DNA from: a virus
Length of the DNA stretch: 64,000 nucleotides
Direction: 5' to 3' (one strand)
Virus record (IMG/VR): IMGVR_UViG_3300025930_000008
Location: 43,023-107,022 of that record
Position 1 is the first letter of the stretch. Each line of letters begins with the position of its first letter. Position numbers and translations under genes: made by a program. The notes under the pieces are model-generated. The model made no database searches. It worked only from the letters and a program-made list of their open reading frames with translations, and was not told where the DNA came from. Below, one piece after another: positions 748 to 48,900 of the stretch.

Positions 748-827
748 TGGCGGGTGGAGGAATCGAACCTCATTACGCTCTCGCCAGCTAGGTTATGAGC
801 CTTGCTGCCCAAACCTGGGCACCCGCG
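748..827 (-). tRNA. atypical tRNA with CAT anticodon (initiator-like acceptor, mini D arm, long variable region)
   Basis: CGCGGGT G CCCA GGTT TGGG CA GCAAGG CTCATAA CCTAGC ... TGAGG TTCGATT CCTCC ACCCGCC A. Confidence 0.7.
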
Positions 828-2520: not shown

Positions 2521-2533
2521 CACCAAGTTATAC

Positions 2534-2662
2534 GAGAGTCCACTGTGCCGTAGCCACTCCGAACGGTTCCTGCCGTCCCGCACTAGCCTCACGGTCTAGG
2601 CGATGGTCGGGAGACAATCTCCCCCTTGGGGCAGTCCATCCCAACTTAGAAGTAGAACTCTC
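2534..2662 (-). ncRNA. candidate ~130-nt multibranched ncRNA
   Basis: GAGAGTTC/GGACTCTC terminal stem; internal GGGAGA/TCTCCC, GATGG/CCATC and GGACGG/CCGTTC helices. Confidence 0.4.
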
Positions 2663-2665
2663 TAG

Positions 2666-2735
2666 TAGACCGGGCAGGATTCGAACCTGCAATGAACAAT
2701 GATAAAGATTGTTTGTGTACCGTACACACCGGTCA
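2666..2735 (-). tRNA. non-canonical tRNA-like gene, anticodon TTA (ochre)
   Basis: TGACCGG T GTGT ACGGT ACAC A AACAAT CTTTATC ATTGTT CATT GCAGG TTCGAAT CCTGC CCGGTCT A. Confidence 0.7.
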
Positions 2736-2802
2736 AGCCCCGGCATAGGGTTCCCGCCCTATGTTACTCCGGGGTCGTCCACGGACAATTAGTCGATGGA
2801 CA

Positions 2803-2874
2803 TGGGCCGCACTGGAATCGAACCAGTGACTTCCTGCGTGTCGAGCAGGCGTTCTACCGCTGAACTAGCGGCCC
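2803..2874 (-). tRNA. tRNA-Val(GAC)
   Basis: CCTGC TCGACAC GCAGG; C at position 33. Confidence 0.92.
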
Positions 2875-3299: not shown

Positions 3300-3328
3300 A
3301 CACTACCCGACAGGTTCCCGCCTGTCAA
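3300..3328 (-). promoter_or_regulatory. sigma70/SigA-type promoter embedded in an inverted-repeat region (3268-3343)
   Basis: TTGACA-N17-TAGTGT. Confidence 0.55.
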
Positions 3329-3405
3329 GGCGAGGGAACCTGCGTGCTTAATCCCCGTGGGTACGCACGGATTAGGTACTGCGATGGCCCCTGACTGATG
3401 GGCAG

Positions 3406-4512: not shown

Positions 4513-4646
4513 TAGTACCGATAACGTTCAAGGAAGGGCTGTTATCGGTGTTATCGTGCGACTGCCATTGGACCATATTCATAGTCGAGAGCCTTGCGCC
4601 GCTGCATGATACCCCGGATTCCCGTCCGGCATATTCATGCCTGATA

Positions 4647-5455: not shown

Positions 5456-7136
5456 CGACGCAGCGTTCTTCCGACTCTTCAAAGACCACGCCTTCCTGTT
5501 CACGCGCGACATTATAGCCGACCGCGCTCAAGGGCTGTCCGCCCCGCGCCCCGTCAGGATAGCAGGTCACGCCGCGAAGTCTAGGGAGATAATCATACAA
5601 CATCTTCCCAAAGTCCTCAACTTCATCCGGGTCTGTGATTACATACGGGAGGTTGATCGTGGAGGATATTCCGTGATCGACGTACTGCTGTACGAAGGCT
5701 TGAAACGCAATCCTTTTTTCCACATTGTATGAGAGCGAGTACGCATCTTCAATCTGGTCTGGCGCCACTCCATACTCGTCAACCAATCTCTTTGCGGTGG
5801 GATCAACGACGTACTGGTACTTCCATGTTTTGCCTGACGCCAGGTATCGACGTTTGTACGCCACACAGAAGATCGGTTCAATGCCAGTAGTTGTTTCAGC
5901 GATAATCCCGATTGTGCCTGTTGGAGCAATTGCTCTAGTCTTTGCAGGCCGAGTAAGGTTATGGCGATCTGCCCAATAGTGAGCGTACTCTGTCGCCTTT
6001 GTGTAGTATTCCAACCACTCTGCCAACTCTTCGTTTGGCTCATATGAATAACCTCGCTTGAGCAACCACTCATGAATTCCCATCAGGCCAAGGCCAAGAC
6101 GCCTGTTCTTCTGACGAACAGCGTCAACCTTTTCGTAAGGGACATGACTATAAACCGTGCCTGCTAATAGGAAAAGAGTCGCATGGAATACAGCATCACC
6201 AAAGTCATCTAGGCTATCAAACCGTGCTAGATTTAGACTACCTAAATTACAAATGTCTGAATCATCTGTAGAGGTAACCTCCGTGCAAGCGTTGCGTAGA
6301 GTTTCACCTGCGTTCTCCCCTGTGTCAATAGAGAACCCTGGCTCTGCCGTCTTGAGCATTCGCTTGACCGTAGACGAATAAACATGCACTGCCTGGTCAT
6401 GTAGCTCATGCCAGTCGTTCTCGTATGCTACAAAAAATTCATCGTCTAGAATAATGGATACATTAGTCATATCCAACGTGGCCGGGAAGTTGAAATCCTT
6501 CTCTTTGAGGGCGCGTACCTCTGCGGGCCAGTCCTTAACGCGAATAAACTTAATAGCATCAGGATGGGACCACTTAAGGCCAGCCCAAATAGCAGAACGA
6601 CGACTACCACCCTGCATGATATGACGGCCACACTCATTGACCATTTCCATCAACGAAATAGGACCGGAAGCGAATCCACCAGTGCGCTTGATAGGTTCAC
6701 CCTCTGCACGCACATCAGAATAGTCTATACCGATACCGGCACCTGTCATCAGCGCCATAGACGCCCGGTAGAGTAGGTCAGACCATTCCTCGCGTGAGTC
6801 GCCAGCCTTTAACAACAAACAGTTCTGCGTCTGGTGTAGGTCACGACCTGAGGCGTACAGGTAACGACCACCCGGCATGAACTGCCTGTTCGTAATAAGA
6901 TTCAATACTCGCTGATACTCAGGAGTTGTATGGTCATAATCCAGGGCACCCAAAACATGCTTAGTAACACGCTCTGCTGTGTCCTCCCACGACTCCACTG
7001 GATTGCCGTTTTCGTCCTTCCAAGCGTACTTCTGTTCGTAAATAGATGATGCGAATGGACTCATGTCTACTTCCCGTAGTTCCTTGACTGTTACGGGAAG
7101 TGAGTCCCTCTCTGCTAGTGCCACTGTCGGTTGCAT
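5436..7136 (-). CDS. nrdJ: class II (B12-dependent) ribonucleotide reductase
   Basis: FMPGGR, NC, GG-RRSA, NACTE active site, CNLGSLNL, IAPTGT, C-terminal CVGGAC; no nrdB nearby. Confidence 0.88.
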   Translation of the reverse strand: MQPTVALAERDSLPVTVKELREVDMSPFASSIYEQKYAWKDENGNPVESWEDTAERVTKHVLGALDYDHTTPEYQRVLNLITNRQFMPGGRYLYASGRDLHQTQNCLLLKAGDSREEWSDLLYRASMALMTGAGIGIDYSDVRAEGEPIKRTGGFASGPISLMEMVNECGRHIMQGGSRRSAIWAGLKWSHPDAIKFIRVKDWPAEVRALKEKDFNFPATLDMTNVSIILDDEFFVAYENDWHELHDQAVHVYSSTVKRMLKTAEPGFSIDTGENAGETLRNACTEVTSTDDSDICNLGSLNLARFDSLDDFGDAVFHATLFLLAGTVYSHVPYEKVDAVRQKNRRLGLGLMGIHEWLLKRGYSYEPNEELAEWLEYYTKATEYAHYWADRHNLTRPAKTRAIAPTGTIGIIAETTTGIEPIFCVAYKRRYLASGKTWKYQYVVDPTAKRLVDEYGVAPDQIEDAYSLSYNVEKRIAFQAFVQQYVDHGISSTINLPYVITDPDEVEDFGKMLYDYLPRLRGVTCYPDGARGGQPLSAVGYNVAREQEGVVFEESEERCVGGACGI

Positions 7137-12055: not shown

Positions 12056-12729
12056 GTCAGTATGTAGTATTCCATCCGTATGGCACTGTTGATCTAGAGG
12101 CTTCGCATGCCTCAGATTTATCAGTGGTCAACGCTGCCCGCGTATCTTTTGCCAAACACAGCCGTTTCTACTCGGACACCGACGCTAGGGTCCTACGGTT
12201 CTTGATGAAGGAAAAGCACGGTACGCCCTTTGAGCATAATTATTTCAGATGGCGTGTACGTGCGCCTATGATTGTTTTCTGGGAGTGGGTACGGCATCGT
12301 ATGGCCTCCTACAACGTGGAATCAGCACGGTATGTGGAAATGCGTCCGCACTTTTACTATCCAGATGAGGCGCGTATTCAAAAGGGCAGGCCAGGAGACT
12401 ACTGGTTTGAGTCAGGGACAGGAGAGCAGACCAAATGGTTACAGAAGGAACTATCAGAGCATTCGCAACAGGGGTTCGACCTCTACCTAGAAGCAATCGA
12501 CCGGGGAATTGCCAAAGAGCAGGCCCGTCTGTTCGTGCCTCCAAATCTCTACGTAGAGTTTTATTTCTCCTGCAACGCCCGCAGCCTCATGAACTTCCTG
12601 TCCCTGCGTAATGACACTCATGCTATGTATGAGATACGCAAGTATGCTATCGCTCTAGAGTATCTATGGGGCGAGATAATGCCAGACACTAAGAAGGCAT
12701 TCGTAGAACATGGTCGCATTGCACCTTAA
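12052..12729 (+). CDS. thyX: flavin-dependent thymidylate synthase
   Basis: AARVS, HGTPFEH, RHRMASYNVESARY, EQAR, EIR. Confidence 0.95.
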   Translation: MSQYVVFHPYGTVDLEASHASDLSVVNAARVSFAKHSRFYSDTDARVLRFLMKEKHGTPFEHNYFRWRVRAPMIVFWEWVRHRMASYNVESARYVEMRPHFYYPDEARIQKGRPGDYWFESGTGEQTKWLQKELSEHSQQGFDLYLEAIDRGIAKEQARLFVPPNLYVEFYFSCNARSLMNFLSLRNDTHAMYEIRKYAIALEYLWGEIMPDTKKAFVEHGRIAP

Positions 12730-15839: not shown

Positions 15840-18800
15840 TGCAATTCGCTCCACTACACAATCACTCAGAATACTCCGCACTAGACGGGTTCTCTACCTG
15901 TGAGGAAATAGCGGAGCGATGCGTTGAATTGGGGTGTCCCTGCTGCGGTATCACAGATCACGGTACTGTGGCAGGGCACCTTGAATTCGCTAAGGCCCTA
16001 GCTAAGAGGGATATCAAGCCTATCTTTGGTACAGAATTGTACCACGGAGTCAAGCCCAAAGGTTACAAGGGCTGGACTCGGAACGAGCGTGACCAGGCGC
16101 ACCTAGTTGTGGGTGCCATGACGAATGAGGGCCTACGTAACCTATGGCGACTGAATGATATCGCCAGTCAGAACTTTCGATACGTAGGGAGGGTGACGTG
16201 GGATGATCTTGAGGGCTATTCAGACGGTCTTTTTTGCACTACAGCTTGCATCGCTAGTCTCGTATCTAGTGAGTTGCTTGCCGGACACTCGGAGTCTCTA
16301 AATAAGTACGTAGAGATATTCAAGGATAATCTCTACGTTGAGTTACACACCTATCCCAGCCCTGACCAAGAGCAGATCAACCTGGCTCTTTGTCAAATTG
16401 CAACGGAACGTGGACTCCCCGTAGTATACGCTAACGATGCCCACTTTGCCTATCCCGGGCAGTATGCGCAGCACGATGCTTATGTTGCCATGCAGACCGG
16501 GGAATCCATTGACACTCCGATCAATGACCGTAAGATGTGGCACCCCTTTGCGTTGTATATGATGGACGAAACGGAGATTCGCAACCATTTACATTACCTG
16601 CCTGACTCTGTAGTTGATGAGGCGTTGTCAAATACCGTCGCGCTCGGCAGCCGCTGTAATGTCAGCCTCCCATCTATCAAGCCACATCTCCCTATCTTCA
16701 TCCCCAAGCATTGCGAATTCGTCCCCGAACATCATCGTGAGGACAATGCGAGCAAGCTCTTTATCGACCTTGTTGAGAATGGCCTCAAGGATCGCTACGG
16801 AGAGGACGCCGGGGATGAGGTATGGCAGCGCGCGAATAAGGAAATGGAGGCTTTCTTTGCAGGAGGGCTTCATCACTATTTCTTACAAGCGTGGGACTTC
16901 TGTCAGTTCTGTGATGCAAATGGCATAGAACGGGGTCCGGGTCGTGGATCGGCGGCGGGAGCGCTTGTTTCTTACGCGCTTGGTATTACGGACGTTGACC
17001 CACTTCGTTACCAACTCTCTTTCGAGAGGTTTTGGAACGCTGGTCGAGCTAAAGGCTTCCCCGATATAGACAATGATTTCCCCGTTTATGAGCGTGAGAG
17101 GATTAAGGAGTACCTCACTCGTAGGTGGGGCGGCGACAACGTACGCAGCATAGGCACGGTGACCCGGCTGAAACCGAAAGCTGCCCTTGATAAGACTTAC
17201 AGGGTATTTGGCGTCGAGTTTCAAGAGAAAGAATCCATCAAAAAGATTGTCAACACTGTACCTGACCTCAACATTCTCGGTGCCGACTCGGTGGGCTGGA
17301 AAGATGACGGTGGCGGTAAGACGATCTACGTGTGGTCACATGTTGGTCGGCAGATAAAGCAGTACGTTGAGCAGCGTCCACCTGATCGTCAAACTGTCCT
17401 GTGGAAGTGGCTTGATTTCGTGGAGGCTGTGTGTTCCCGTGTTTCAGGATACGGCGTACATGCCTCAGGAGTCGTTGTGTCCGATGTGCCATTGAGTGAT
17501 GAGTTGCCTAGTTTCTGGTCAGCTACAGGTAACACTCAGGCGACGATGTTCCCGATGGCCGACGTGGATAAGCGCGGATTCATCAAGCAGGACATTCTTG
17601 GCCTGCGGAATCTAGACACTCTACAGGAGTGGAAGCGCCTCGTCAAGCTGAACCACGGCATTGATATCAAGTGGTCAGGATTAGAGGCTAAGCAGCACCC
17701 ACTTGAGATGTGGGAAATGCTGGACAAGGGACTCACCACGGGTGTGTTCCAAATTGAGACTAGTCCACCTGTGAGAAAGCTGACCATGGAATTCAAGCCA
17801 CGCTCAGTCGAGGACTTGTCAGTTATTGTGGCCTTGAACCGTCCCGGCCCACTACGTAGTGGTACGGGTGAAAGGTTCGTAGCCCGCCGTAATGGCCTAG
17901 AGCCGATCCAATACGACCACCCCTTTCTTGAGGATATCCTAGATGAAACTTATGGACTGTTTCTATATCAGGAGCAGGTCATCGCGCTGTTCAGTAAGCT
18001 AGGTCTATCTGAGTCTGATGCTGATGCGATCCGTAAGGTACTAGGCAAGAAGAATAATGAGGATTGGCAAGCGGTCAAGAATGGTGAAGGGGAGTGGCAA
18101 GATAAGGGCTTTTTCGATCTTGCTCGCCGTGTTATGGATGAGGGTTCTGCGCAGGTTATATGGAACCGCCTTGAGGAATTCGCTAAGTACAGCTTCAACA
18201 AGTCGCACTCCATCGCTTATGCAACGATTGCGTTTCGTACGCTCTATGCGAAGTATTACGCGCCAACAGAATTCATCATGGCATGTATACGAACCAATAA
18301 CGAAGATGCAGCTTTATACGTGGCTGAGGGACGACGCATCGGAGTGCCAGTATTGCCTCCGGATATTAGAAAATCCGGTGCTGAGGTTGGCGTTACCGAT
18401 GGAGCTATCTACTATGGACTCGCAAACGTTAAGGGTGTGGGCCTATCATCTGCACGGTATCTCTCCCAACTTGTCAAAACACATTCATGCTTTACGCCCG
18501 CCGACGTTGAAACGGCGTTAGAGGTAGAAGATGCGGCGTGGCGAAAGAGAAAAGAGGCTCATCAGGCTAATAATGTCACAGCCTTCCGCGAGCGCTCACC
18601 CCGTAGCCAGTGTCGATCCAATATCATTGAGGCCCTTGAGAGAGTTGGGGCCTTTGACAATTACAAAGAAAGAACTGTATCTCTGGCTGAACAGCAAGCC
18701 GCCGAGACTGAACTCTTGGGCATTGTTCTTAGCGACAACACTCAGGAAGCGCTAGATAGAAACTCCGATCTGGTAGAAGAATGTGACGATTACCAGGAGT

Positions 18801-33117: not shown

Positions 33118-34181
33118 TATCCTAGCTCTGCCCAGGGCTGAATTCCCGTACCACCGGAGGTTAGGGTGCCGGGTGTGCCAGTTGTGAATCCTGAGGCAGC
33201 GCGAGCCAATCCAAAGGTTCTCAGGCCGCGTGTACCGGACATACCGGAGACTCCTGAGGCTCCACGTAACTGTAGAGTAGTCCCCGACCAAGCTATTCCA
33301 AGATAAACTTGCTGCTGTTCAGTCAAAACTACAGGCGAGGCAAGCGCTACGTCATACACTGTGCTAGCCGCCGTAACTGTTCCGGAGAGATTCGCTGTGG
33401 CCTGTAGCAATGTGCCGGTAGAATCCCAGACTGCGCCACGTACATCGGTGAGAGCCGAAGGCGCGGTACCTCCTGTGCAGAACCGAATGTTGGTATAAGT
33501 TCCGGCTTTCATAGCGAAGGCTGCGACTCCATACATAGTGCCGCTGACCAGGGTCAGGGCTGTCTGCGCATGTAAATCACTCATTGTCATCACATTGCTG
33601 GAACGACGCTTCAAGTGCAATTCGTTGAAATTGTTGCCTCCCGTGATGATATCGCCATCGGGGCCAACAACAAATCTTTCAACGCCATTCTGGCGGAAGT
33701 TCATCAGCTTGCCGGTAGTACCACCGACTTGTTCAGCGTCAAAGAAAATACCCTGGGCGGCTGTACCCGCTCCATTGCAGCGCAATGAGAGTACAGAGGC
33801 TCCACTGTCGTCAATAGAGCCGCCCGCCGTAGGACGATTGTGGGTAGCCTTGATCGTTCCCTTGCCTGTCTCATAGCCAGAGATACCAAAGGTGGTATCC
33901 ATTGGGCCTACGTTAGAATAATCGTTACCCGTGACAAGCAGAACGTTTCCGTTAGACGGTGCAGCCCCCGTACGATTGACGATAAGCAGATGGGTACTAG
34001 GAGCGCCTTGCACTCGCATAATCGCCTGACTGGTATCGGCAGTACCCGTGAAGGTATTGTTTCGCGTGAGACTACCGTCTGTGTATGTAGCTAGACGAGT
34101 CTCTAAATCCTCCATCGCTGCCGCTGAGAGGGGTGTGGTAGTCTCGGGAGCGTCTTTCCAATCTTTAACTGTAAATGCCAT
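33117..34181 (-). CDS. tail fibre / tailspike-like protein
   Basis: N-terminal W.D.P..TTPLSA..M..LE anchor; DT.FGISG.E..KGTIK..H segment reminiscent of phage hyaluronidase beta-helix. Confidence 0.65.
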   Translation of the reverse strand: MAFTVKDWKDAPETTTPLSAAAMEDLETRLATYTDGSLTRNNTFTGTADTSQAIMRVQGAPSTHLLIVNRTGAAPSNGNVLLVTGNDYSNVGPMDTTFGISGYETGKGTIKATHNRPTAGGSIDDSGASVLSLRCNGAGTAAQGIFFDAEQVGGTTGKLMNFRQNGVERFVVGPDGDIITGGNNFNELHLKRRSSNVMTMSDLHAQTALTLVSGTMYGVAAFAMKAGTYTNIRFCTGGTAPSALTDVRGAVWDSTGTLLQATANLSGTVTAASTVYDVALASPVVLTEQQQVYLGIAWSGTTLQLRGASGVSGMSGTRGLRTFGLARAASGFTTGTPGTLTSGGTGIQPWAELG

Positions 34182-34183
34182 AG

Positions 34184-36025
34184 TTATCCAATATTCCGGG
34201 CTGCTCGTAAGTTTCGTACCTCAATAGGACCCGTATAACTTTCTCGACGGATAATCTCCAATCGTAAGCCACGGGTAAAGGGGATAGCTCCTAAGCTGTC
34301 TGTGAATGTTAGCGTAGTGGTTTGCCAGCCATTATTATCTAGGTCGTTACCAGCGATATAGTTGCTATATGGCTCCACCGGAGTGACTGGTATCCAAATT
34401 GATTCATCGCCTCCATCACTGGCATCAAAGTACACGTTTACCGTGACTGGCTTACGACCAATCTCAAAACTCAAATAGTTGGTTGCACTGACTTGCTCAA
34501 AGTCTATAACGATCCATTCGTCATCCTGCTGAGCCACAGATATCCACTCTTGATCGCCAATGTATCGAATCGGTGGCACGCCCGGTAGCTTGGTGTAGTC
34601 CTGTGGATAAACGCCGTTGACGAAACTGTTGACGGCTCCATTTTGTGTCTGTGTGGCTGACGTGATAAACAGAGGCTCATCATAATCTGCCAGAACACGG
34701 TTGGCATTGAGTGGATTAGACGAAGTAACGGCTTGGCTGATGTTATGCCAGCCTGTGTAATGGTATTGGTAGTCTTTAGCGATACGAGGCGCTTCCTTTT
34801 CCACCTCCTGCTCAACCCAATAGATGGCATTTGGTGCAGGCCAGATGACTCGCGGGTTGCCAGATACGAAGCGGACAACCTCTGTATACTCAGAGGATGA
34901 GTAAGCGTCAGACCAGTTATTACGCTCCCTCAAACCGGGAGAGCTACCCACTGTCATAATGGTCGTCTGTGACCTGATACGGTCAACAGCGCCTTGTAGA
35001 TTCCACAGGCTCTTAGGTGAAATGTTGACAATCTCGTCAATAGCCTCTCGGCCTCCTACGCTTGTCGTCACCTTAAGAAAGGACGGGGTACCATTGGGCG
35101 TAATCAAAGACTCAGACCCCGACTTAAGCTCTGGCACGTCCCTATCCGCTAGGCTCCTGACGAATCTTACTTTCCAAGGGAGGACAGGGCCAGGACCACC
35201 GGTGACTTCCACATTTCCAGCACCGATGGTTGGGATGGCTTCTAATGCTAAACGAATTTGATCGCTAGTGGCGGTGACTGGAATTGAGGACGTGGTGACT
35301 GGACCCGTACCATCGTCATATGTGTATGGATAGTTAGCAGAGTCTAGACTATTGTAGACTAATGTGAAGCTACCACTGATGGGGAAATCAGGATCTATGG
35401 TGAAGGAAATGGTCTGTTCCTCTGACTGTCCAATCTCACGGCGCGGGAGGACTATCATTTCCTCTGTAGATTTGGTCTTGCCTAGATACTTTACACCTAG
35501 CGGATCATCAGAGTGAGTGTCAAAGAGATACTTGTAGTTCTCTACAATCTCTACGTCGTGCCCAAGGCCAGCCTTGGCGACCAACTTCATACCCATCGGG
35601 GTATTGCCAGCCCTCGCCCCATTGATATAGTCAAGCGCCCGGTTACGATAACGAGCGTTCTGTGACTTGATCTGCTCGTCTTGGTCCCTTGTTATTAGAC
35701 CAGTATAATCTACATCGTAAATTTCATCAGCGATGCGCCCGAATGCAAACGGGTTACCAAAGAATGAGTCCAGATCGAAGGCGTCCAGACCCATTTCCTC
35801 TAGCGCAATGCGGGCGTCTAGCTGATTCTTACGTAGCCAATTGACCCCGGCGTCACCCAGCAGCACTCGCATGAACTTGTACAGATGCGAGTCTGCGCTT
35901 TTGGTATAAATCTCGTACGGGAAGTTCTCGATGTAATGGAAAACATCTTTGGCCCCCGTAAGAGGCTCGATGAGGTAATTTTGCTTTACTACCTCGCTGT
36001 ATGTAGGAACACCACTTACAGCCAT
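34184..36025 (-). CDS. baseplate wedge protein
   Basis: LD.FFG, YR.R, G.T..G motifs; follows baseplate J. Confidence 0.7.
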   Translation of the reverse strand: MAVSGVPTYSEVVKQNYLIEPLTGAKDVFHYIENFPYEIYTKSADSHLYKFMRVLLGDAGVNWLRKNQLDARIALEEMGLDAFDLDSFFGNPFAFGRIADEIYDVDYTGLITRDQDEQIKSQNARYRNRALDYINGARAGNTPMGMKLVAKAGLGHDVEIVENYKYLFDTHSDDPLGVKYLGKTKSTEEMIVLPRREIGQSEEQTISFTIDPDFPISGSFTLVYNSLDSANYPYTYDDGTGPVTTSSIPVTATSDQIRLALEAIPTIGAGNVEVTGGPGPVLPWKVRFVRSLADRDVPELKSGSESLITPNGTPSFLKVTTSVGGREAIDEIVNISPKSLWNLQGAVDRIRSQTTIMTVGSSPGLRERNNWSDAYSSSEYTEVVRFVSGNPRVIWPAPNAIYWVEQEVEKEAPRIAKDYQYHYTGWHNISQAVTSSNPLNANRVLADYDEPLFITSATQTQNGAVNSFVNGVYPQDYTKLPGVPPIRYIGDQEWISVAQQDDEWIVIDFEQVSATNYLSFEIGRKPVTVNVYFDASDGGDESIWIPVTPVEPYSNYIAGNDLDNNGWQTTTLTFTDSLGAIPFTRGLRLEIIRRESYTGPIEVRNLRAARNIG

Positions 36026-40550: not shown

Positions 40551-41167
40551 TAGTTACCCGTGATCTTTCGGGGGGAAAGCATGATGAAAGTATTGCCACG
40601 ATAATAGGTTCCAGCACTTGTGCCCATGAAAATTTGTACACAGAAAACACCAGAAGCCATAGTTGCCTTACGCCGACCAATGCCCGACCCCATCCATGTA
40701 GCGTTAGTATTTGCCGCACCGATCTGCCATAATGGATCGACACCGTTACTTGGATATGCATTGTTGACCATAGCGGGGATGCCCGCACTAAAGTTAAGAC
40801 CAATTACATAATTGACACCGGCCCCGGCAGCAAGAGACACACCCGCTCCCCACTCAACGATATAATCGCCTGATAGTGGAGCCGTAGCCACAGGATCGAA
40901 AGTTGTGCTAATGCTGGCCCATGCACTTAAGCTTAAACTTGCCGAACGGTTAACCGCGTCAAAGGCGTATACAGGCTCCTGTCGTCCTACTGGATACCAA
41001 GCCGAAGTGCCCGCATCATAGATCAATTGCCAATAAATTACTGTGGGATCAGCGGGCGTTACAGTCTGCGTAAATTTGTAATTCACGATCATGCCGTCTA
41101 CCGGACTCGCCGGGAGCGAAGTCACCGTTGGGATGGGTCGATAATCAGATACGCTTCTACGTGCCAT
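40550..41167 (-). CDS. fibre-tip paralog protein
   Basis: V.SLP..P.DG...W.L.Y...W..VG..P..PL.GD. domain shared with the C-terminus of the upstream fibre. Confidence 0.7.
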   Translation of the reverse strand: MARRSVSDYRPIPTVTSLPASPVDGMIVNYKFTQTVTPADPTVIYWQLIYDAGTSAWYPVGRQEPVYAFDAVNRSASLSLSAWASISTTFDPVATAPLSGDYIVEWGAGVSLAAGAGVNYVIGLNFSAGIPAMVNNAYPSNGVDPLWQIGAANTNATWMGSGIGRRKATMASGVFCVQIFMGTSAGTYYRGNTFIMLSPRKITGN

Positions 41168-44100
41168 TAGCCGACCCTCACAGGCATGACCTTCATCCAA
41201 CGATTAGAATATGTGGGTGTAGATGAGTTGACGCCACCCGAATTGTTATATTGCATCTTTATAAGAGAGCTTGTAGCTACAGAAGTTACTCGGGTATCAC
41301 CATTTAGACCTTGGATACCGCCGAATACCGCGCCACTTGTTTCTGTGTATTGGTCTAAGACGAGGGGTGTACCTGCAACAGTCGCAGCAATTGCATGATA
41401 AGCGTTTGCGCTAGCTCCCCATGAGCTAGTCGCGCCAGCGCTGATATCCCAATCACCGGCTAGAGGGGTTGTGTAAGACGGACCAACAGAGGCGGTCAGG
41501 TCTGACCAACCACCTGTGGTGACAGCGATAGCGGCAGCGGTTGCAATAGCCACATAGATAGGAGAGCCACCAACGACTTCCCACTTATATGTTGATGCGC
41601 TTGATTGGTTATAACGTAGATGCCAAACAACGCCTTGCGCAGCCATAGTGGCATCTTGGAAATGAACCTCTAGACCATCGCTGAGTCCTGTTGTTGGGAG
41701 AACGCTGACCTTGGCCGGGAGATTACCTGCGGGGCCGGGAGGTCCCTGAGGCCCAGCTAAAAGAGTTGATACTGAATCGGTGTCAAATTCAATAACGTCT
41801 AGTGATAGTGCCCCAGCGGCTGAGGCCGGGAAATCATTAAAGACTTGCCCGGAAGGATTGACGATTAGGCGTGCATATGTACCACCGTTGTCGGTAGTAA
41901 ACCAGGCGTTGAATGCCGGTCGATAGCCAACAGGCAGAGTAAAGATCACCGCATTGGTCGTTCCGCCCTTGACCAATCCGCGTACCTGAACTTTGCCTAG
42001 CGGGTCCTTACGGAAGGCCGCGCTTTGGTAAGTGCCAACCGTATGGTTTGTATATCCATTTTGGAATGCAGGTTCACCCGATCCACCGACAAGGTGCCAA
42101 GGGTCCATCGCTTGTTGGGTAAGCGTAACATTGCCTGGGCCTGAGCAAACAACAGTGTACTGATTTTGTGAAGGCGCAGGTGTAGCAGGATTGAATTTGA
42201 CAGTAACTTGGTTGAGACTGTTACGTTCGATTTCTGCGGTAACCTCAGACCAGGGCGAATTAGTTTCGTAAACGCTGACCGCGATATTACGAGTTGCCAA
42301 ATTATGGTCAATAGCAAAAGTACGAGTAGCACCATCGCCAATGATCGTTGAAAATGAGGTACCACCGGGGACTCCCTGTGGACCAGCGGGGAGAGTGGTT
42401 ACCGAATCTGTATCAAACTCGATCCCGTCAAGTGAAAGCAGCGTCGCCGTGGCATCGCCCCAGGCAAACACCGATCCATCAGCGGCGATATTGACCTGGG
42501 TCCAGGCGGTTGATGTGTTTGAGGATCCATGTGGGTCGAACCGGAGTTGCTTTGGCGGGCGATAACCGGCAGGCAGAGTGAACATCACTGTGCCAGATGC
42601 TCCACCCTTTGCCGACCCCTCTATTTTGACTATACCATCGGGGTATTTACGGAATCGTGGCACCTGAAACGAGGCACCGGCATCGTAGGAAGTCCACGAG
42701 TTTTGGAATGCCGGTTCACCCGAATTACCAACAATATGCCAGGTGTCCATCGTCTGCTGAGTCAGGACAGCGCCCGGACCATTGACAACAACTGTGTATT
42801 GACCTGTAGTTGGAGCGGCAGTAGCCGTGGCAGTACGGATCGTTAGAGTGTTCTGATCCGTGTATTCAATTTCAGCGGGGACATAGGCCCTAGGTGAATT
42901 GGTTTCGCGGACAAAAGCGTTGACATTCCAGCTAGCGAGATTGTGCGAGATAGTGAATACCTTGCTTGTACCATCGCCAAAAACCTGTGTATAGGATTGA
43001 CCACCAGGAGGGCCAGCCGGTAGAGTTGTGACCGGTATATCTTCAGCTATGAATGAAAGACCATCAAGAGATTCCCAACCACCTGACGCTGTGTTACCAA
43101 CTGTGACACTGATAACACCCGTCGTTGCAATGTCAAGACGACCAGGGGTATTAGGTTCTCCATAACGGTTTCCTATAATCAATGGGCCTGATGGACGATA
43201 GCCCGCTGGCAATGTAAAGAGCGTTGAGCTAGCTGCGGCGCTTGCTAAACACACACCCTTCAACTGCACAGTGCCATCAGGCAATTTACGGAAAGCCACG
43301 CCACCTGAGAATGCAGCCCAGCTAGTCCAGTTGGTACCAAAGGCAGGCTCTCCCGCCGTGCCAACGTAATGCCAAGAGTCAATAGTCTGTGAACTTACCG
43401 CCGCACCTGGCCCGGTAATGACGACCGTATATTGACCAGTCGTTGGCGCTGCTGAGGTGGCAGAAGTTTTGACTGTAACAACGCTTGGAGTAGTACGCTC
43501 GACTTCAACTTCTACCTCTGAAAATGGTGAAGCCGTCTGGTAGCACGCAACATTGACATTACGTGTACCCATCCCATGGGTAAGCGTGAAAGTCTTAGAG
43601 GTACCATCACCGATAACTGCTGACCATGAATTTCCTGAGGTACCGGGAGGGCCAGCCGGAAGAGTAGTGACTGAATCGGTATCAAATTCGACGTTCATCA
43701 AATGCAGATTGGTTCCTGCACGAACGCCTGCCACTACACCTGTGTTATCAATGCTGATGAAATTGCCTGCCGCTCCACCGTCGCCTAGGACGGGGAGGTA
43801 TTGAAATGTCGGAGGCCGATATCCAGCGGGAAGTGTAAATACAGTTGTTCCAGTCGTACCACCTGAAATGGTCCCTCGCATCTGGACCTTGCCCAATGGG
43901 TCCTTACGGAATGACACCGGGCCATAAATACCACCAAAGCTAGTCCACGAATTCACAAATCCGGGTTCGCCTGCTGTACCAACTACATGCCAAGGATCAA
44001 GATTCTGCTGAGTTATAGCCGCGCCAGGACCAGAGACTACGACTGTGTATTCATTCAGCGCGATAGGAGCTAAACCAGCCGATGTACGAATAGTGATCTG

Positions 44101-45675
44101 ATCGACCGTAGTCTTTTCAAACTCTAGACCACCGGTTACGTCCTGATATGGTGAGGCAGTCTGGTATACGTCGATCTGAACGTTACGAGTACCTAGAGCA
44201 TGGGTGACTGTAAAGGTACGAGCGACGCCATCGCCGATAGGTACCGAGAATTGAGCACCACCGGCAGTACCCCCACCTCCACCGCCGCCAGGAATGGTGA
44301 CAACGGTTTTATTGTTAGACGAGTCGTCTGTGACAGTGACACCGGCACCAGAGAAATCAAGATTTGGACGATTGGTGCGGGCAATACCCTCGTCCATAAT
44401 GGTATGACCAGCGCTACCCCACGTTGTATCGTAATCAGTAGCTGATGCTTTGACTAATGCCTGGCCCGTAGTACCTCCTGTGGGTACGCCTGGTCCCGCA
44501 GCGCCAGTGGGTCCGCTTGCTCCTTGAGGGCCGGTTGGCCCCGTAGCTCCGGTAGCTCCTGCTGGACCCGTCGCGCCTGTTGGACCTTGTGGACCCTGCG
44601 CTCCCGCTGCCCCCTGGGGGCCGGGGATACCCTGTGGGCCAATAAGTACGCCGCCGCTGATGGTGACACCGCTGACTTTGACGATGTATGCCAACACTAC
44701 ATATGGCGGCATGTTGTTGTGAGTGAGGCCACCACCTGTGTTAGTAGTTCCTGAAATGCCAGTGAAAGCTGATGCCGTGTTAATAACCCACGCGCCGAGC
44801 GGGGCTGCGTTGTGCGGAGGAATACCACTACCAGAGTTGGTAGGTCCGGCTGCTGTCGTATATGGTGCGGTGGCACCGTGAATGTGGCCCGGGTCATTGA
44901 TCGTGTGACTGTGGGCCGGAACCTCTGAGGTTATAAGACTGTGGGTTTCCTCGCCAGGATTTGCAAGCGCAGGATTTGTCTGAGATTTAGTACCGACTGT
45001 ACGAGAGCCGCTAGCAAAAATGAAACGATTGCTAAGGTCAGGGACTACGAAAGTTCCTGCCCCGGCGTTATAGTCCCAAAGAGTGCTTCCCCCGTCCTTT
45101 TGTGACTTGGCGAAATCATAGCCATCTGGGTATGCTGCACGGGTAAGAGACTGACCGTTGGCTAGAACATAGTCAGTAGGGATAGTATTCCCCGTCCAAG
45201 CCATGACCATACCGATACGACCGGTATCCATGCCTCCACCGCCACCAGCACCGGCTTTGAACACCTGATCTGAGTCATTCCAAACGAGGCTCTCACCATT
45301 GTTGATATCTGTCAGATCAACAGGAGCTAGACGCATCCCACGGTCGTCATAAATCTTGCTAGAATCCAGGCGCATTTCGCCTGGGTCCATAACCGTGATA
45401 TCAAAATCCTCAACCTCTGTGAAGGCAATACCACCATTCTGTGGTAAAGCCTTGTAGCCATGCACACGGCTACAGAGATTCCATGTAACGTTGTCGATTG
45501 GATCGCGTGTTATCGACCAAACCTCGCCGGTCTGAGGCCAGCGGAAGCTAGGCGGCACGTCTAGAATAGAAACGTAGACTAATCCGCCGTCGCGGAGTTT
45601 GCCCTGAATCTGTTTAGTCTGTGGATAAGCGGATAGGACTTCTATCCACTGTTTATCAGGACCGTATACTCTCAT
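41167..45675 (-). CDS. central spike/fibre: collar domain, collagen Gly-X-Y, four tandem two-domain modules
   Basis: G.V.AW.G..IP..Y..ANG..PDL..RF..GEE.H..HNNMPPY collar; GXY run about 44490-44640; 4x (GDG..TH.L.TRN + FTLP.GYRP). Confidence 0.85.
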   Translation of the reverse strand: MRVYGPDKQWIEVLSAYPQTKQIQGKLRDGGLVYVSILDVPPSFRWPQTGEVWSITRDPIDNVTWNLCSRVHGYKALPQNGGIAFTEVEDFDITVMDPGEMRLDSSKIYDDRGMRLAPVDLTDINNGESLVWNDSDQVFKAGAGGGGGMDTGRIGMVMAWTGNTIPTDYVLANGQSLTRAAYPDGYDFAKSQKDGGSTLWDYNAGAGTFVVPDLSNRFIFASGSRTVGTKSQTNPALANPGEETHSLITSEVPAHSHTINDPGHIHGATAPYTTAAGPTNSGSGIPPHNAAPLGAWVINTASAFTGISGTTNTGGGLTHNNMPPYVVLAYIVKVSGVTISGGVLIGPQGIPGPQGAAGAQGPQGPTGATGPAGATGATGPTGPQGASGPTGAAGPGVPTGGTTGQALVKASATDYDTTWGSAGHTIMDEGIARTNRPNLDFSGAGVTVTDDSSNNKTVVTIPGGGGGGGTAGGAQFSVPIGDGVARTFTVTHALGTRNVQIDVYQTASPYQDVTGGLEFEKTTVDQITIRTSAGLAPIALNEYTVVVSGPGAAITQQNLDPWHVVGTAGEPGFVNSWTSFGGIYGPVSFRKDPLGKVQMRGTISGGTTGTTVFTLPAGYRPPTFQYLPVLGDGGAAGNFISIDNTGVVAGVRAGTNLHLMNVEFDTDSVTTLPAGPPGTSGNSWSAVIGDGTSKTFTLTHGMGTRNVNVACYQTASPFSEVEVEVERTTPSVVTVKTSATSAAPTTGQYTVVITGPGAAVSSQTIDSWHYVGTAGEPAFGTNWTSWAAFSGGVAFRKLPDGTVQLKGVCLASAAASSTLFTLPAGYRPSGPLIIGNRYGEPNTPGRLDIATTGVISVTVGNTASGGWESLDGLSFIAEDIPVTTLPAGPPGGQSYTQVFGDGTSKVFTISHNLASWNVNAFVRETNSPRAYVPAEIEYTDQNTLTIRTATATAAPTTGQYTVVVNGPGAVLTQQTMDTWHIVGNSGEPAFQNSWTSYDAGASFQVPRFRKYPDGIVKIEGSAKGGASGTVMFTLPAGYRPPKQLRFDPHGSSNTSTAWTQVNIAADGSVFAWGDATATLLSLDGIEFDTDSVTTLPAGPQGVPGGTSFSTIIGDGATRTFAIDHNLATRNIAVSVYETNSPWSEVTAEIERNSLNQVTVKFNPATPAPSQNQYTVVCSGPGNVTLTQQAMDPWHLVGGSGEPAFQNGYTNHTVGTYQSAAFRKDPLGKVQVRGLVKGGTTNAVIFTLPVGYRPAFNAWFTTDNGGTYARLIVNPSGQVFNDFPASAAGALSLDVIEFDTDSVSTLLAGPQGPPGPAGNLPAKVSVLPTTGLSDGLEVHFQDATMAAQGVVWHLRYNQSSASTYKWEVVGGSPIYVAIATAAAIAVTTGGWSDLTASVGPSYTTPLAGDWDISAGATSSWGASANAYHAIAATVAGTPLVLDQYTETSGAVFGGIQGLNGDTRVTSVATSSLIKMQYNNSGGVNSSTPTYSNRWMKVMPVRVG

Positions 45676-48600
45676 CTACCACCCGCGCACCATGCCTCTA
45701 GAGATTTCAGGGTGGGCATTCTTCTTCATTGAAGATGGTGCGCTTAGATTAGCCTGAGTAGTAAAGCCAGCGGTGTAATCAAATGAGTGGTGTACTTCGT
45801 CAATAAACATCTGGATACCGTGACTTGGGAAGGCTACAAGACCACCCGGATACAACTCCGGCATGAAGGTAAATGAGAACGTAGTCTGGAACTGACGTGC
45901 CCACATCAGCATGAATTGCTGGTATGCATAGAATGTCTCAAAGACGTGAGAGCGGATCATGGGAGCCTCTTGGACATATGGCCGCGCTCCATACCTCTGT
46001 AAGAATTCCACGGACTTCTGATAGGTACCGAGGAATGGCTGAGTATCTTCGCCATACTCTGTCTGTAGCTCAGTTTCCTTCTGTTCCTCTTGCCCTGCAC
46101 TCGTTAGAGCGTGGGTGACTCCTGATCTAACAAAGGGGTTCTGAGTAATCTTAGGTGGATTTGACTGTGTGAGGTTTAGGAAGTCAGAAGTGCCAGCGTT
46201 GAGAATGTTAACCACGCCAGTAGTCTCCAACTTACGGGTAATCTCAATGCTCTGATTAGGAAGAGTTGCGCCGACCACATAAACATGTGTAGCCAAAGCC
46301 TCATCTGTAAGCTGAATGTTTCCTTCAAGGATTTCAATGTCGTCTATCTCCCAATATGGGGCTGTGCCCATAGTGCCAAAATAGTCTGGGTAAAATGCGA
46401 GGAAGTCTCCATCGGGGAGGCTCTGGAATGATCGCATCGTGCCCTTGATAATCTGCTCAATGAACGGCAAAAGAGGCTGGTCGTTCATGAGAGACTTGCC
46501 ACCTGTCAACAGGATTGACTCTGCTGCGTCCACAGCCTCGGGGAAGTTCAACTGAGAGAACACAGAGGCGGTCTTAGCTGCGACCAATGGGTCTACGCTG
46601 CCACCGGAAGCCTCTCCACCACCACTAGCTGTATCCTGTCCAGCTTCCCCGGCAGGGGCAGTTTCACCCTTCTGTAGCGCCTTGAATACAGCAGTAGGGT
46701 CTACGGAGCCATCCATGCCATTTGAGTCGTTACGCATGATGAAATGGACGTGGGGAGCCGGGTGGTTAGACTTCGCCAAGACCTTGCCAGCTTTTACCTT
46801 GTCGCCTGGGCTGACCATAACTTCACCAACATGGCCCCAACCGATAACGGTGCCCTTCTTAATCTCACCTACGTCCTCATCGAAGATGAAATGGACCATG
46901 CCGCCGTACCCACCGAATGCATAGCCGGATGAGGCATACTTACCGATGGTGCCGTCACACGGAGCGATACATTCTGTGCCCGTGGGAACCGGTACGTCAA
47001 TACCCATGTGCGTGTGGGGAGGGTTACCGTGATTGGCCTCACCGAACGGCGAGCTAATGTCGGTCTTACCACCCTTGATGACAGAGTAGAGTTTACGATC
47101 AGATGAACTGGCCGGAGTGTCAGTGGTTTTAGAATCCTCCCATGCCTTTAGACGAGCCTGATAATCTTCTGTACTCTCTCCCGCTCGCCTGTTAGGCTTG
47201 GCTGTGACGGTCGTGGTGCTTGGATCGGTCTGGTTGGTATCACTGCTATCCTCTGCGGTTGAGGAAGCCTTGTCCTTATCTGATTCAGATGACCCACCCT
47301 TTCCTACCGCAGCCTTAGCGGTTTCTAGATAGCGCAGATAGGTTTTCTCATGACCGGGTGTATCGGCCCCTGTATAAGTCGTCCAAGGATTCCAGTTGGT
47401 TCCGTTGCTGGAAATCTTCATCATGGCCTGGGCGTTCTTTGAAGGGACCTTCAAATCCTCTACCGTCATGCCTAGTTCGGGGTGAACGCTCTGATAAATC
47501 TGCCAGAGTCCTACACAACCGATGGAGTTGACCACCTTAGGGTTACCCTGTGATTCCGCAGAGGCGATAGCCCCGGCGATAGCAGCCTTTTCTCCCTCCA
47601 AGCCAGCTTCCTCGGCCAGAGCTACAAGCTCTGCTGTAGAGAATTCTCCCTTGGCGTCCTGTGATCCCGCTGCACCGGAGCTACTGCTTCCTGAACCTGT
47701 GCCCTTAGAACCCTCTCCGATGAAGTCTTTAAGCCACTGATTGAATTCCGCAGTAGCTTCTGTATTGGCAGCCTGTAATGAATTGAAAATTTGCTGGATA
47801 CGATCTACTAGACCAATGGGTAATTCCTCAATGAACAGATGCTTAGGGTCCCATCGCGCTATATGCTTCAAACAGGCGTAAGCCAAATCACTCATGCTGG
47901 CGGCTTGAATCTCATCAGCGGTGATAGGCTGTGCCACAGACTGAGTGGTGGAATTACTACCGTTTGCGCTGACACCTCCCACCACGGCGTCATTAATCAT
48001 GTCAGCGCGTTTCTTATAGCCCGCAGCGTTAGGATGCATACCATCTGTTAGGGTCACATCACCGTTGTCTACGACGGCCTTCCAGTCAATGATGTGTAGA
48101 TTGGAATGCTTGGCTGCCACCTGACCTAAAGCGGTATTAATAGCCGTATCGGCAGGCTTACCCGCGAGGGCTGGACGCTTGATATTGAGCCAGTAGACTG
48201 GTCGGCCATTAGCCAGGCTCATGATTGACTCAGCGCTCTTTTTGAAATTCACAGTGTCGAAGTCATTCGTGCCAAGAGAGATAACCAACTGGTCGCCTAG
48301 CTTAGACCTATTAGCCTGTAGGTTTTTGAGTCCCTGGGCGGTAGTGATACCTACCTTGGCATTGGTGGTGGCCTTGATGGTAGCCTTTTTGAGTCCATCG
48401 TCAGTGCCCACGGCCAAAGAATCTCCGTACACTTGTACATTGCCCACCGTGCCAGTGCCAGCGGTGTTAGAGCCGGGAGACTGGATATTGCCATCTGGCC
48501 CCAGCAGCCAACCATATGAAGCCATGAAGTGCATCATAAATGGCAAGCCTGGATCGAAGTAGGTGTACTGCAATCGCTTTAAGCTACAGCTAGCCGTTAC

Positions 48601-48900
48601 CGTGCATGTGCCCGGGTACATCTGGTAATACGGTACAGAGTCCAGATAGCCGGTGAATACCTGAATGGGCATTCCGGGGAGCCTCTGTAGGAAAATGGTG
48701 ATCTTATCCATCGGGCTGAACGTGTTATTCCCCGGCTGTGTGAACTGGCGATACGGGTTCTGAAAAGTAACCTCAGCCGTAGAGACTTGATTCAGTTTGC
48801 GAGAGACATTCCCTGATACAACAAGATCAGAGATATTGATTGTCTCTTTGGGGGTCTGGATATATACGTAGACTTTTGGTGAGTAAACTAAGCGGCGCAT
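45676..48900 (-). CDS. baseplate hub / tail-associated lysin: SGNH hydrolase + lytic transglycosylase + M23 peptidase
   Basis: GDSL, GTND, DGMH; AESQG..GLWQI..W.PWTTY; HMGID..HVH, inserted in a hub scaffold. Confidence 0.85.
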   Translation of the reverse strand: MRRLVYSPKVYVYIQTPKETINISDLVVSGNVSRKLNQVSTAEVTFQNPYRQFTQPGNNTFSPMDKITIFLQRLPGMPIQVFTGYLDSVPYYQMYPGTCTVTASCSLKRLQYTYFDPGLPFMMHFMASYGWLLGPDGNIQSPGSNTAGTGTVGNVQVYGDSLAVGTDDGLKKATIKATTNAKVGITTAQGLKNLQANRSKLGDQLVISLGTNDFDTVNFKKSAESIMSLANGRPVYWLNIKRPALAGKPADTAINTALGQVAAKHSNLHIIDWKAVVDNGDVTLTDGMHPNAAGYKKRADMINDAVVGGVSANGSNSTTQSVAQPITADEIQAASMSDLAYACLKHIARWDPKHLFIEELPIGLVDRIQQIFNSLQAANTEATAEFNQWLKDFIGEGSKGTGSGSSSSGAAGSQDAKGEFSTAELVALAEEAGLEGEKAAIAGAIASAESQGNPKVVNSIGCVGLWQIYQSVHPELGMTVEDLKVPSKNAQAMMKISSNGTNWNPWTTYTGADTPGHEKTYLRYLETAKAAVGKGGSSESDKDKASSTAEDSSDTNQTDPSTTTVTAKPNRRAGESTEDYQARLKAWEDSKTTDTPASSSDRKLYSVIKGGKTDISSPFGEANHGNPPHTHMGIDVPVPTGTECIAPCDGTIGKYASSGYAFGGYGGMVHFIFDEDVGEIKKGTVIGWGHVGEVMVSPGDKVKAGKVLAKSNHPAPHVHFIMRNDSNGMDGSVDPTAVFKALQKGETAPAGEAGQDTASGGGEASGGSVDPLVAAKTASVFSQLNFPEAVDAAESILLTGGKSLMNDQPLLPFIEQIIKGTMRSFQSLPDGDFLAFYPDYFGTMGTAPYWEIDDIEILEGNIQLTDEALATHVYVVGATLPNQSIEITRKLETTGVVNILNAGTSDFLNLTQSNPPKITQNPFVRSGVTHALTSAGQEEQKETELQTEYGEDTQPFLGTYQKSVEFLQRYGARPYVQEAPMIRSHVFETFYAYQQFMLMWARQFQTTFSFTFMPELYPGGLVAFPSHGIQMFIDEVHHSFDYTAGFTTQANLSAPSSMKKNAHPEISRGMVRGW

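Follow-up and report, generated by a model that had tools for sequence, protein, structure and literature searches.

The ochre suppressors of Escherichia coli, supB (a tRNAGln changed from UUG to UUA) and supG/supL (a tRNALys changed from UUU to UUA), read UAA and, by wobble, UAG, and U34 and U35 together with A73 (Lys) or U1 (Gln) keep them chargeable. They are laboratory mutants of canonical tRNAs in which position 37 holds a modified purine and 1:72 is paired. Stop anticodons also occur in phage tRNA sets: the Klebsiella jumbo phage phiKp24 carries a Sup-TTA (PMC8386662), the Xanthomonas phage XacN1 has two CUA tRNAs, suppressors without targets (PMC5852040), and in an alpha-group crAss-like phage a tRNAGln has turned from TTG to TTA with TAA not reassigned, which its authors read as "suppressor pre-emergence" (PMC7886860). 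A distinct geometry is displayed by tRNAPyl, in which the anticodon stem has 6 bp, the variable loop 3 nt and the D loop 5 nt, and a single base connects the acceptor and D stems; it lacks G18G19 and T-Psi-C, carries a CUA anticodon and is recognized through G73 and G1:C72, by shape (PMC1851642). Here we describe a compact tRNA gene with a UUA anticodon (hereafter the UUA tRNA) at positions 2666-2735, minus strand, of a 64,000-nucleotide stretch of viral DNA (the window), which spans bases 43023-107022 of the linear, 107,022-bp IMG/VR record IMGVR_UViG_3300025930_000008 (GC 51%). It shares its anticodon and the charging determinants U34, U35, A73 and U1 with the E. coli suppressors, from which it differs in being a natural phage gene, in its compact shape, in the pyrimidine at 37 and in the open 1:72 pair. 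Like the phage examples, it combines a stop anticodon within a phage tRNA set with a stop that is not reassigned and no identifiable target gene. Such orphan suppressor-type tRNAs in standard-code phages are already known; what is new here is the compact shape. We favor, with a probability of about 0.45, the reading that this RNA, a lineage-specific orphan suppressor-type tRNA, is made and matured with the phage tRNA array and would read UAA and UAG only weakly, if at all.

The element is a genuine tRNA gene of the phage's own array. It lies in a single minus-strand array of 36 ordinary tRNA genes (covering all 20 amino acids) and a transfer-messenger RNA (tmRNA) gene, between ordinary tRNAs and with the same strand and spacing. 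Read from 2735 to 2666, its sequence is U GACCGG U GUGU ACGGU ACAC A AACAAU CUUUAUC AUUGUU CAUU GCAGG UUCGAAU CCUGC CCGGUC U A, that is, 70 nt including the discriminator A2666; as in most tRNAs of the array, CCA is not encoded. The 5' strand of the acceptor stem (2729-2735) consists of GACCGG preceded by U1, which is mismatched with U72 (2667). The shortened D arm (2715-2728) comprises the connector U2728, a stem of GUGU (2727-2724) and ACAC (2718-2715) and a 5-nt loop, ACGGU (2723-2719), retaining GG. The anticodon arm (2695-2713) has a 6-bp stem, AACAAU/AUUGUU, and the loop CUUUAUC (2707-2701), with the anticodon at 2705-2703, U37 at 2702 and C38 at 2701, and is followed by the variable loop CAUU (2694-2691) and a canonical T arm, GCAGG-UUCGAAU-CCUGC (2690-2674; both together 2674-2694). 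A preliminary description, made from the sequence alone and giving no strand, had listed these geometric features, and all of them are present.

ARAGORN called the gene as tRNA-Stop(tta). Against the Rfam tRNA model RF00005 it scored 36.3 bits (E 1.2e-6, model positions 1-71, gathering score 29) when 2640-2760 was searched alone with laxer filters; in 64-kb and 6-kb searches with stricter filters the tRNA model missed it and just tRNA-Sec was reported, at 26.6 bits. The minimum free energy (MFE) fold is the cloverleaf, at -23.2 kcal/mol (z = -3.6), and only 1 of 200 shuffles was equally stable. Watson-Crick pairs occupy 21 of the 22 stem positions, with no G·U among them; U8, G18G19, U33, T54-T55-C56 and A58 are all present and the T loop is standard. 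The odd features are the short D arm, U rather than a purine at 37, C38, and the U1·U72 mismatch with A73. A U at -1 (2736) could pair with A73; other array tRNAs also have T at this position, and ARAGORN draws it as an eighth pair. A 72-aa open reading frame (ORF) overlapping the gene (2528-2746, minus strand) has no Pfam match and was taken as spurious.

Two registers of the D arm can be drawn. That of ARAGORN and Rfam has U8 and G9, a D stem of 3 bp followed by an A13·C22 mismatch around a 5-nt D loop, an anticodon stem of 5 bp extended by A26-U44, and a 5-nt variable region, whereas the tRNAPyl-like register used by the MFE fold has one connector base, four Watson-Crick D-stem pairs, a 5-nt D loop and a 6-bp anticodon stem. 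The second appears the more likely, because it contains four rather than three Watson-Crick D-stem pairs and restores the usual G10:C25 and U11:A24 (Y11:R24). In either register the D arm is 2-3 nt below that of any ordinary array tRNA (ARAGORN anticodon position 31 versus 33-36). The 6-bp anticodon stem by itself is not unusual here, at least seven other array tRNAs carrying a Watson-Crick 26:44 pair.

In the better-paired register the UUA tRNA resembles tRNAPyl and bovine mitochondrial tRNASer(UCN) in four respects: a single base connects the acceptor and D stems, the D loop has 5 nt, the anticodon stem has 6 bp and the variable loop is short. The likeness to these molecules proposed in the preliminary description holds for the core geometry (PMC1851642) but does not make the element a tRNAPyl. 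That identity was rejected: the molecule retains G18G19 (in ACGGU) and TTC (in UUCGAAU), its variable loop is 4 nt long (5 nt in the canonical register) rather than 3, the anticodon is UUA and not CUA, A73 and U1·U72 stand in place of G73 and G1:C72, there is no sequence similarity, and PylS was not found on the contig. We also rejected tRNASec, which has a 13-bp acceptor/T branch and a long variable arm: RF01852 gave 26.6 versus 47 bits, the variable loop is short, the anticodon is UUA and not UCA, and the possible eighth pair U-1:A73 would sit above the U·U mismatch. An allo-tRNA (8/4 or 9/3; PMC5389517) was rejected as well, the UUA tRNA being 7/5 (seven acceptor positions and a 5-bp T stem).

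Among the matches listed in an IMG/VR scan were nine ARAGORN tRNA(UUA) calls (at least eight distinct genes), with the loop CUUUAAA in eight and CUUUAAG in one, and hence A37 throughout. These canonical UUA tRNAs have a normal D arm, in contrast to the shortened D arm, U37/C38 and U1·U72 of the present gene. A strict descriptor of the compact shape required an acceptor of seven positions, a single connector base, a D stem of 4 bp with GG in its 5-nt loop, a 6-bp anticodon stem, U33, a variable loop of 3-4 nt, a 5-bp T stem and a TTCRA T loop. In 4.5 Mb of phage DNA it found only the UUA tRNA and one other gene, a tRNAGln(CUG) of the phage IMGVR_UViG_3300045918_000340 (L101:6352-6424, plus strand). 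Both tRNAs lie in phage tRNA arrays and have U1·U72, C32, C38 and a standard T loop; both also show a single connector base, a D stem of 4 bp with GG in its 5-nt loop (AGGUU in L101) and an anticodon stem of 6 bp. In the L101 gene, by contrast, the anticodon is a sense one, positions 37 and 73 hold A and G, CCA is encoded, the variable loop has 3 nt, and 2 nt separate the D stem from the anticodon stem; the stems of the two tRNAs have no sequence in common and the phages are unrelated. The L101 gene stands just after a tRNA-Asn (6268-6343) and about 100 nt downstream of an ACCACCA end resembling a tmRNA 3' end, for which ARAGORN made no tmRNA call.

The contig, about 67% complete according to CheckV, belongs to a myovirus-type tailed phage encoding a tail sheath, a DnaE-type polymerase, a DnaB-type helicase and a ribonucleotide reductase (RNR); no isolated phage is close, the best DnaE match being 31% identical, to Gordonia, Rhodococcus and Mycobacterium phages. 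This phage uses the standard code. Its conserved genes are long intact ORFs under table 11 with no in-frame TAA or TAG (DnaE matches its PHROG over residues 1-1049, RNR over its full length), and the structural genes are likewise long intact ORFs with TAA ends. Of the three stop triplets, TAA is the least frequent in the phage DNA; it nevertheless ends 63 of 122 ORFs overall and 50 of the 94 with at least 100 aa, in 28 of these 50 as TAAT. In E. coli, TAAT is the strongest termination context. Coding coverage was 0.895 under the standard code versus 0.904 with TAA recoded, a gain no larger than for other stops; these intact genes and the lack of a TAA-specific gain rule out a stop-codon-recoded phage of the TAG/TGA late-gene type.

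The search for read-through targets on the contig was negative. In-frame extensions past TAA are not longer than those past TAG or TGA, and neither tandem stops nor UGA back-up stops are enriched. For three TAA-separated in-frame gene pairs no fused homolog was found in relatives; in one of them (record positions 34219-34758 followed by 33433-34188, the downstream gene being endolysin-like) the homolog of the closest relative covers the downstream gene alone, inside a 269-aa open frame. At window positions 41167-48900, minus strand, a 1074-aa ORF ends in TAG and is followed directly by the in-frame ATG of a 1502-aa ORF, the sole long in-frame junction that the UUA tRNA could bridge by wobble. 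It was rejected as a target, the first ORF being a lysin-type virion protein (transglycosylase and metallopeptidase parts) and the second a fibre-like protein, that is, two different virion proteins from ordinary neighbouring genes; the junction probably reflects tight gene packing. The ochre suppressor of the preliminary description can accordingly be kept in a weak form, but the predominance of TAA, mostly as TAAT, the lack of a purine at 37 and the absence of targets oppose a stronger one.

An identical 70-nt copy occurs in a second, independent metagenome, on contig Ga0070689_100001252 (L120:14402-14471), at an equal distance from the RNR gene, and the UUA tRNA is therefore not an assembly artefact. 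The two phages are very close (RNR proteins 98% identical; DNA 98.7% identical over 11.2 kb, with about nine differences in the 2.8 kb of shared array sequence). In the closest visible relative (L003, RNR 75% identical) the array order is retained, Arg-Tyr-...-Leu-Leu-Trp-Pro-Thr-Val-Val-(gap)-tmRNA-Thr-Ile-Arg-Ser-Met-Lys, and the 306-nt gap between tRNA-Val(GAC) and the tmRNA holds neither a tRNA nor a recognizable remnant. A ribosome-rescue role, also suggested in the preliminary description, is consequently unsupported: this relative has a tmRNA but lacks the UUA tRNA. The release-factor competitor offered there likewise finds no support. The L003 tmRNA is longer and weaker-scoring than that of the window, and syntenic (16214-16764, 36.2 bits).

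The earlier suggestion that covariance-model searches might reveal conservation of the fold or of the anticodon led no further than the L120 copy. With a covariance model built from the gene (R1), only this copy exceeded ordinary tRNAs (about 30-36 bits) in 49 sources (the window plus 48 loci), in the whole records of 17 related viruses, in 26 metagenome loci and in 30 other loci. Five DNA-pattern scans of IMG/VR yielded no homolog either: the anticodon-arm pattern gave chance matches in AT-rich giant-virus genes, the 3'-half pattern unrelated tRNAs and tmRNA ends, the 5'-half and acceptor-stem patterns zero matches, and the loop plus T-loop pattern no tRNA with a CUUUAUC loop and no homologs, most of its matches resembling tmRNA 3' ends by eye. 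BLAST against isolated phages returned generic T arms only, and among the phage's own tRNAs there is no clear nearest isoacceptor, the identities being unremarkable. The protein collection contains RNR relatives at about 75-84% identity, and the homolog scans covered other records. With no conservation found beyond one phage species, there is no evidence of selection on the UUA tRNA.

The preliminary description had found no Pyl gene or synthetase in the window, which was borne out and extends to the whole 107-kb contig: PylS (TIGR02367) gave no match on this ~67%-complete sequence, with the Methanosarcina control positive, and neither did tRNA-synt_2 (class II Lys/Asp/Asn-type) or tRNA-synt_1c (Glu/Gln-type). 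An aminoacyl-tRNA synthetase, a release factor or a peptidyl-tRNA hydrolase, for which it had pointed to the rest of the genome, was not found on the contig, which has no match to the RF-1 domain, Pth, SmpB or RtcB; the T4 Rnl1 profile matched nothing in the contig or in the controls and is uninformative. The contig does encode a CCA-adding enzyme module, within a 1198-aa ORF (L117, G000:C1:13593-17189, minus strand, where G000 is the whole record). The module covers residues 563-1029, with a complete set of PolyA_pol head, RNA-binding, HD and tRNA_NucTran2_2 domains; the 560 aa N-terminal to it have no Pfam match. Such an enzyme suits an array whose tRNA genes lack CCA. An RNase P RNA-like element of 272 nt (L447, G000:C1:37087-37358, minus strand) lies inside the tRNA array, 5.7 kb ahead of the window start; it matches the whole RF00010 model at 40.2 bits (E 1.6e-12), far under the gathering score of 100 bits. 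A much reduced phage-encoded RNase P RNA would be remarkable, if true. With its own CCA enzyme and this RNase P RNA-like element, maturation of a well-folded array tRNA is likely.

These observations suggest the following course of events. The UUA tRNA would be transcribed as part of the array, released at both ends in the manner of its neighbours and completed by CCA addition, and would fold to an L shape with a core tightened by the missing position 9 and the 5-nt D loop. By E. coli identity rules its charging, if any, would most likely be due to the host lysyl-tRNA synthetase (LysRS; U34, U35, A73), then to the glutaminyl-tRNA synthetase (U35, and U1 with an unpaired 1:72). A charged molecule could read UAA and, through wobble at U34, UAG, competing with the release factors, both of which act at UAA. 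Decoding would be poor, because all three codon-anticodon pairs are A-U, U37 is not the (modified) purine that stabilizes the A36-U pair, and the open 1:72 would weaken EF-Tu binding; a phage ending half its genes with TAA could therefore tolerate such a tRNA. We picture it as a recently arisen, nearly neutral by-product of array turnover, a case of suppressor pre-emergence, whose probable source is a compact tRNA of the Gln/Lys group with U34 and U35. In E. coli, U1 in an open or weak 1:72 pair marks tRNAGln. A compact ancestor of Gln type is plausible by analogy, given the likeness to the L101 tRNAGln(CUG), U1 with the open 1:72, and a UUA anticodon one change from UUG; the present sequence (U34, U35, A73) fits LysRS at least equally well by the same rules. 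On this reading the UUA tRNA is neither a recoding device nor a Pyl-like system.

Several points weigh against a weak stop-codon reader. A partner enzyme could be encoded on the missing third of the genome. The case for a Gln/Lys ancestor is built on an architecture shared with a single unrelated phage tRNA and on E. coli identity rules rather than on proven homology. The identity of the two 70-nt copies is uninformative on selection, since the genomes are so similar overall and differ so little across the shared array. Finally, a non-decoding RNA would be just as compatible with U37, the mismatched 1:72 pair and the short D arm.

In the main alternative, which we consider unlikely though deserving of real weight, the element would be a tRNA-shaped processing or structural unit of the array transcript with UUA incidental in an unconstrained loop. 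It might offer a binding platform, or a cleavage site that frees flanking hairpin RNAs or a tmRNA precursor. Being poor for decoding, U37/C38 and the open 1:72 pair agree with this, as does the phage's possession of an RNase P-like RNA and a CCA enzyme. Phage tRNA clusters are known to contain tRNA-like RNAs of unknown role, such as the T4 species 1 and 2 RNAs. Moreover, the UUA tRNA is flanked by two hairpins of an over-represented C(A/G)GGAA-hexaloop family: CAUAGGG-CGGGAA-CCCUAUG (2744-2763, minus strand), ending 8 nt ahead of its 5' end, and GGACGG-CAGGAA-CCGUUC (2561-2578, minus strand), about 88 nt downstream. A pure processing signal would, however, need no intact 6-bp anticodon stem, 7-nt loop or U33; the closest relative processes the same array and tmRNA without a UUA tRNA, and no homologs with a drifting loop were found.

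Distinctly less probable is a dying paralogue, a duplicated tRNA whose anticodon changed to UUA, which made it mildly harmful, and which was then disabled by D-arm deletions, an A37 to U change and loss of the 1:72 pair. Its confinement to one phage species, the joint alteration of several hallmark positions and the fast turnover of phage tRNA arrays, visible in the several genes by which the syntenic arrays of the window and L003 differ, would suit such a history. The flawless helices, the intact T loop, GG and U33 and the z-score of the fold are unlike a decayed gene; nor need compaction and the 1:72 mismatch be damage, because the apparently functional L101 tRNAGln(CUG) has both. The argument of the preliminary description that intact helices speak against simple decay is in this respect fair, but in a gene confined to one phage species they are no evidence of selection.

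We regard it as very unlikely that the UUA tRNA and the L101 tRNAGln(CUG) form an unrecognized class of phage tRNA, with a tightened core, canonical elbow and open U1·U72, phage-matured and partly orthogonal to the host, represented here by a weak or regulated UAA/UAG reader tuning termination. The minimal RNase P RNA and the CCA-adding enzyme would then act as maturers, and ribosomes might, for example, be fed to the adjacent phage tmRNA.

Still more improbable, and supported by nothing, is a decoy or sensor-jammer, an uncharged or unusual tRNA absorbing a host anticodon nuclease or tRNA-sensing defence directed at U34U35 tRNAs (Lys/Gln/Glu). The loop starts with CUUU like that of tRNALys(UUU), and the phage carries a full tRNA replacement set. 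Phages do counter tRNA-cleaving defences with their own tRNAs, as T5 does against PARIS and PtuAB. These known counter-measures replace the cleaved tRNA, however, and a stoichiometric decoy would be weak against a catalytic nuclease; RtcB is missing from the contig (the Rnl1 search being uninformative) and the gene is not conserved in relatives. Least credible of all, and equally unsupported, is dedicated orthogonal recoding, in which a phage synthetase encoded on the missing third of the genome would charge the UUA tRNA for selected UAA/UAG codons: the geometry resembles that of tRNAPyl, recognized by shape (PMC1851642), and the contig is incomplete, but the 107 kb contain no PylS, Lys/Asp/Asn-type or Glu/Gln-type synthetase, TAA is the main stop, conserved genes have no in-frame TAA/TAG, and the PylRS identity elements G73 and G1:C72 are absent.

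If active, the gene would be a natural ochre-reading tRNA on a compact tRNAPyl-like scaffold with a normal elbow, relevant to the engineering of orthogonal and suppressor tRNAs and to the onset of stop reassignment in phages by a "suppressor first" route. If inactive, it would illustrate that the anticodons of tRNA-shaped array genes are not evidence of recoding, which matters for automatic code calls in metagenomic phages. At present it is an orphan gene known from a single phage species; there is no hint of a target and no indication that the phage needs it.

The upstream neighbour of the UUA tRNA is an ordinary tRNA-Val(GAC) (2803-2874, minus strand, Rfam 66.6 bits) and the downstream neighbour, 338 nt past it, is the phage tmRNA (1875-2327, minus strand, RF00023 68.8 bits, also called by ARAGORN), which is of the one-piece type. 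A scan of the contig for promoters and terminators gave a result no better than shuffles. Eight C(A/G)GGAA-hexaloop hairpins were counted on the contig minus strand versus about one expected from shuffles, five of the eight within the tRNA array. Besides the two flanking the UUA tRNA they lie, with stems differing in sequence, at window positions 3306-3329 and 4614-4629 and at record (G000) positions 42802-42817, 12223-12242, 35442-35455 and 88072-88085, and they could be a protein-binding or processing signal. L003 has one such hairpin (GGUCAGG-CGGGAA-CCUGGC), immediately upstream of its tmRNA. Among named genome records, a close RNR (77% identity) occurs in one alone, a 3.9-kb scaffold (L320, NZ_JAQBNR010000076.1) of a Ferruginibacter (Bacteroidota) metagenome-assembled genome, which stops just past the RNR gene and is either a weak host hint or a binning artefact.

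Other irregular tRNAs were encountered. At window positions 748-827, minus strand, lies a second one of 80 nt, whose anticodon is CAU. It combines a C1·C72 mismatch with A73, has at most one connector base before its 4-bp D stem, and shows an A·A mismatch within its 6-bp anticodon stem as well as a variable arm of 15 nt; in the large searches it fell under the Rfam tRNA threshold (tRNA-Sec 26.4 bits). Its acceptor stem, CGCGGG.../...CCCGC, resembles that of the E. coli initiator tRNA. The syntenic tRNA-Met(CAU) of L003 (18990-19064, 75 nt) has a C1·U72 mismatch, the open 1:72 pair thus being conserved, and the gene at 748-827 may be a phage initiator-type tRNA. A tRNA-Ile(UAU) at L005:18413-18485 (plus strand), to which ARAGORN assigned an 8-bp acceptor stem with U·U at the second position and a 6-bp anticodon stem, scored 35.3 bits with R1 and has the GUGU/ACAC D stem and a GGCU 5' flank in common with the UUA tRNA. 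Lastly, 74-75-nt tRNAs with a UAA anticodon (Leu UUA/UUG), G1·U72 and A73 (L005:16835-16909, L043:12251-12325 and L257:2068-2141) occur in related and unrelated phage arrays; they are without the long variable arm that bacterial tRNALeu normally has.

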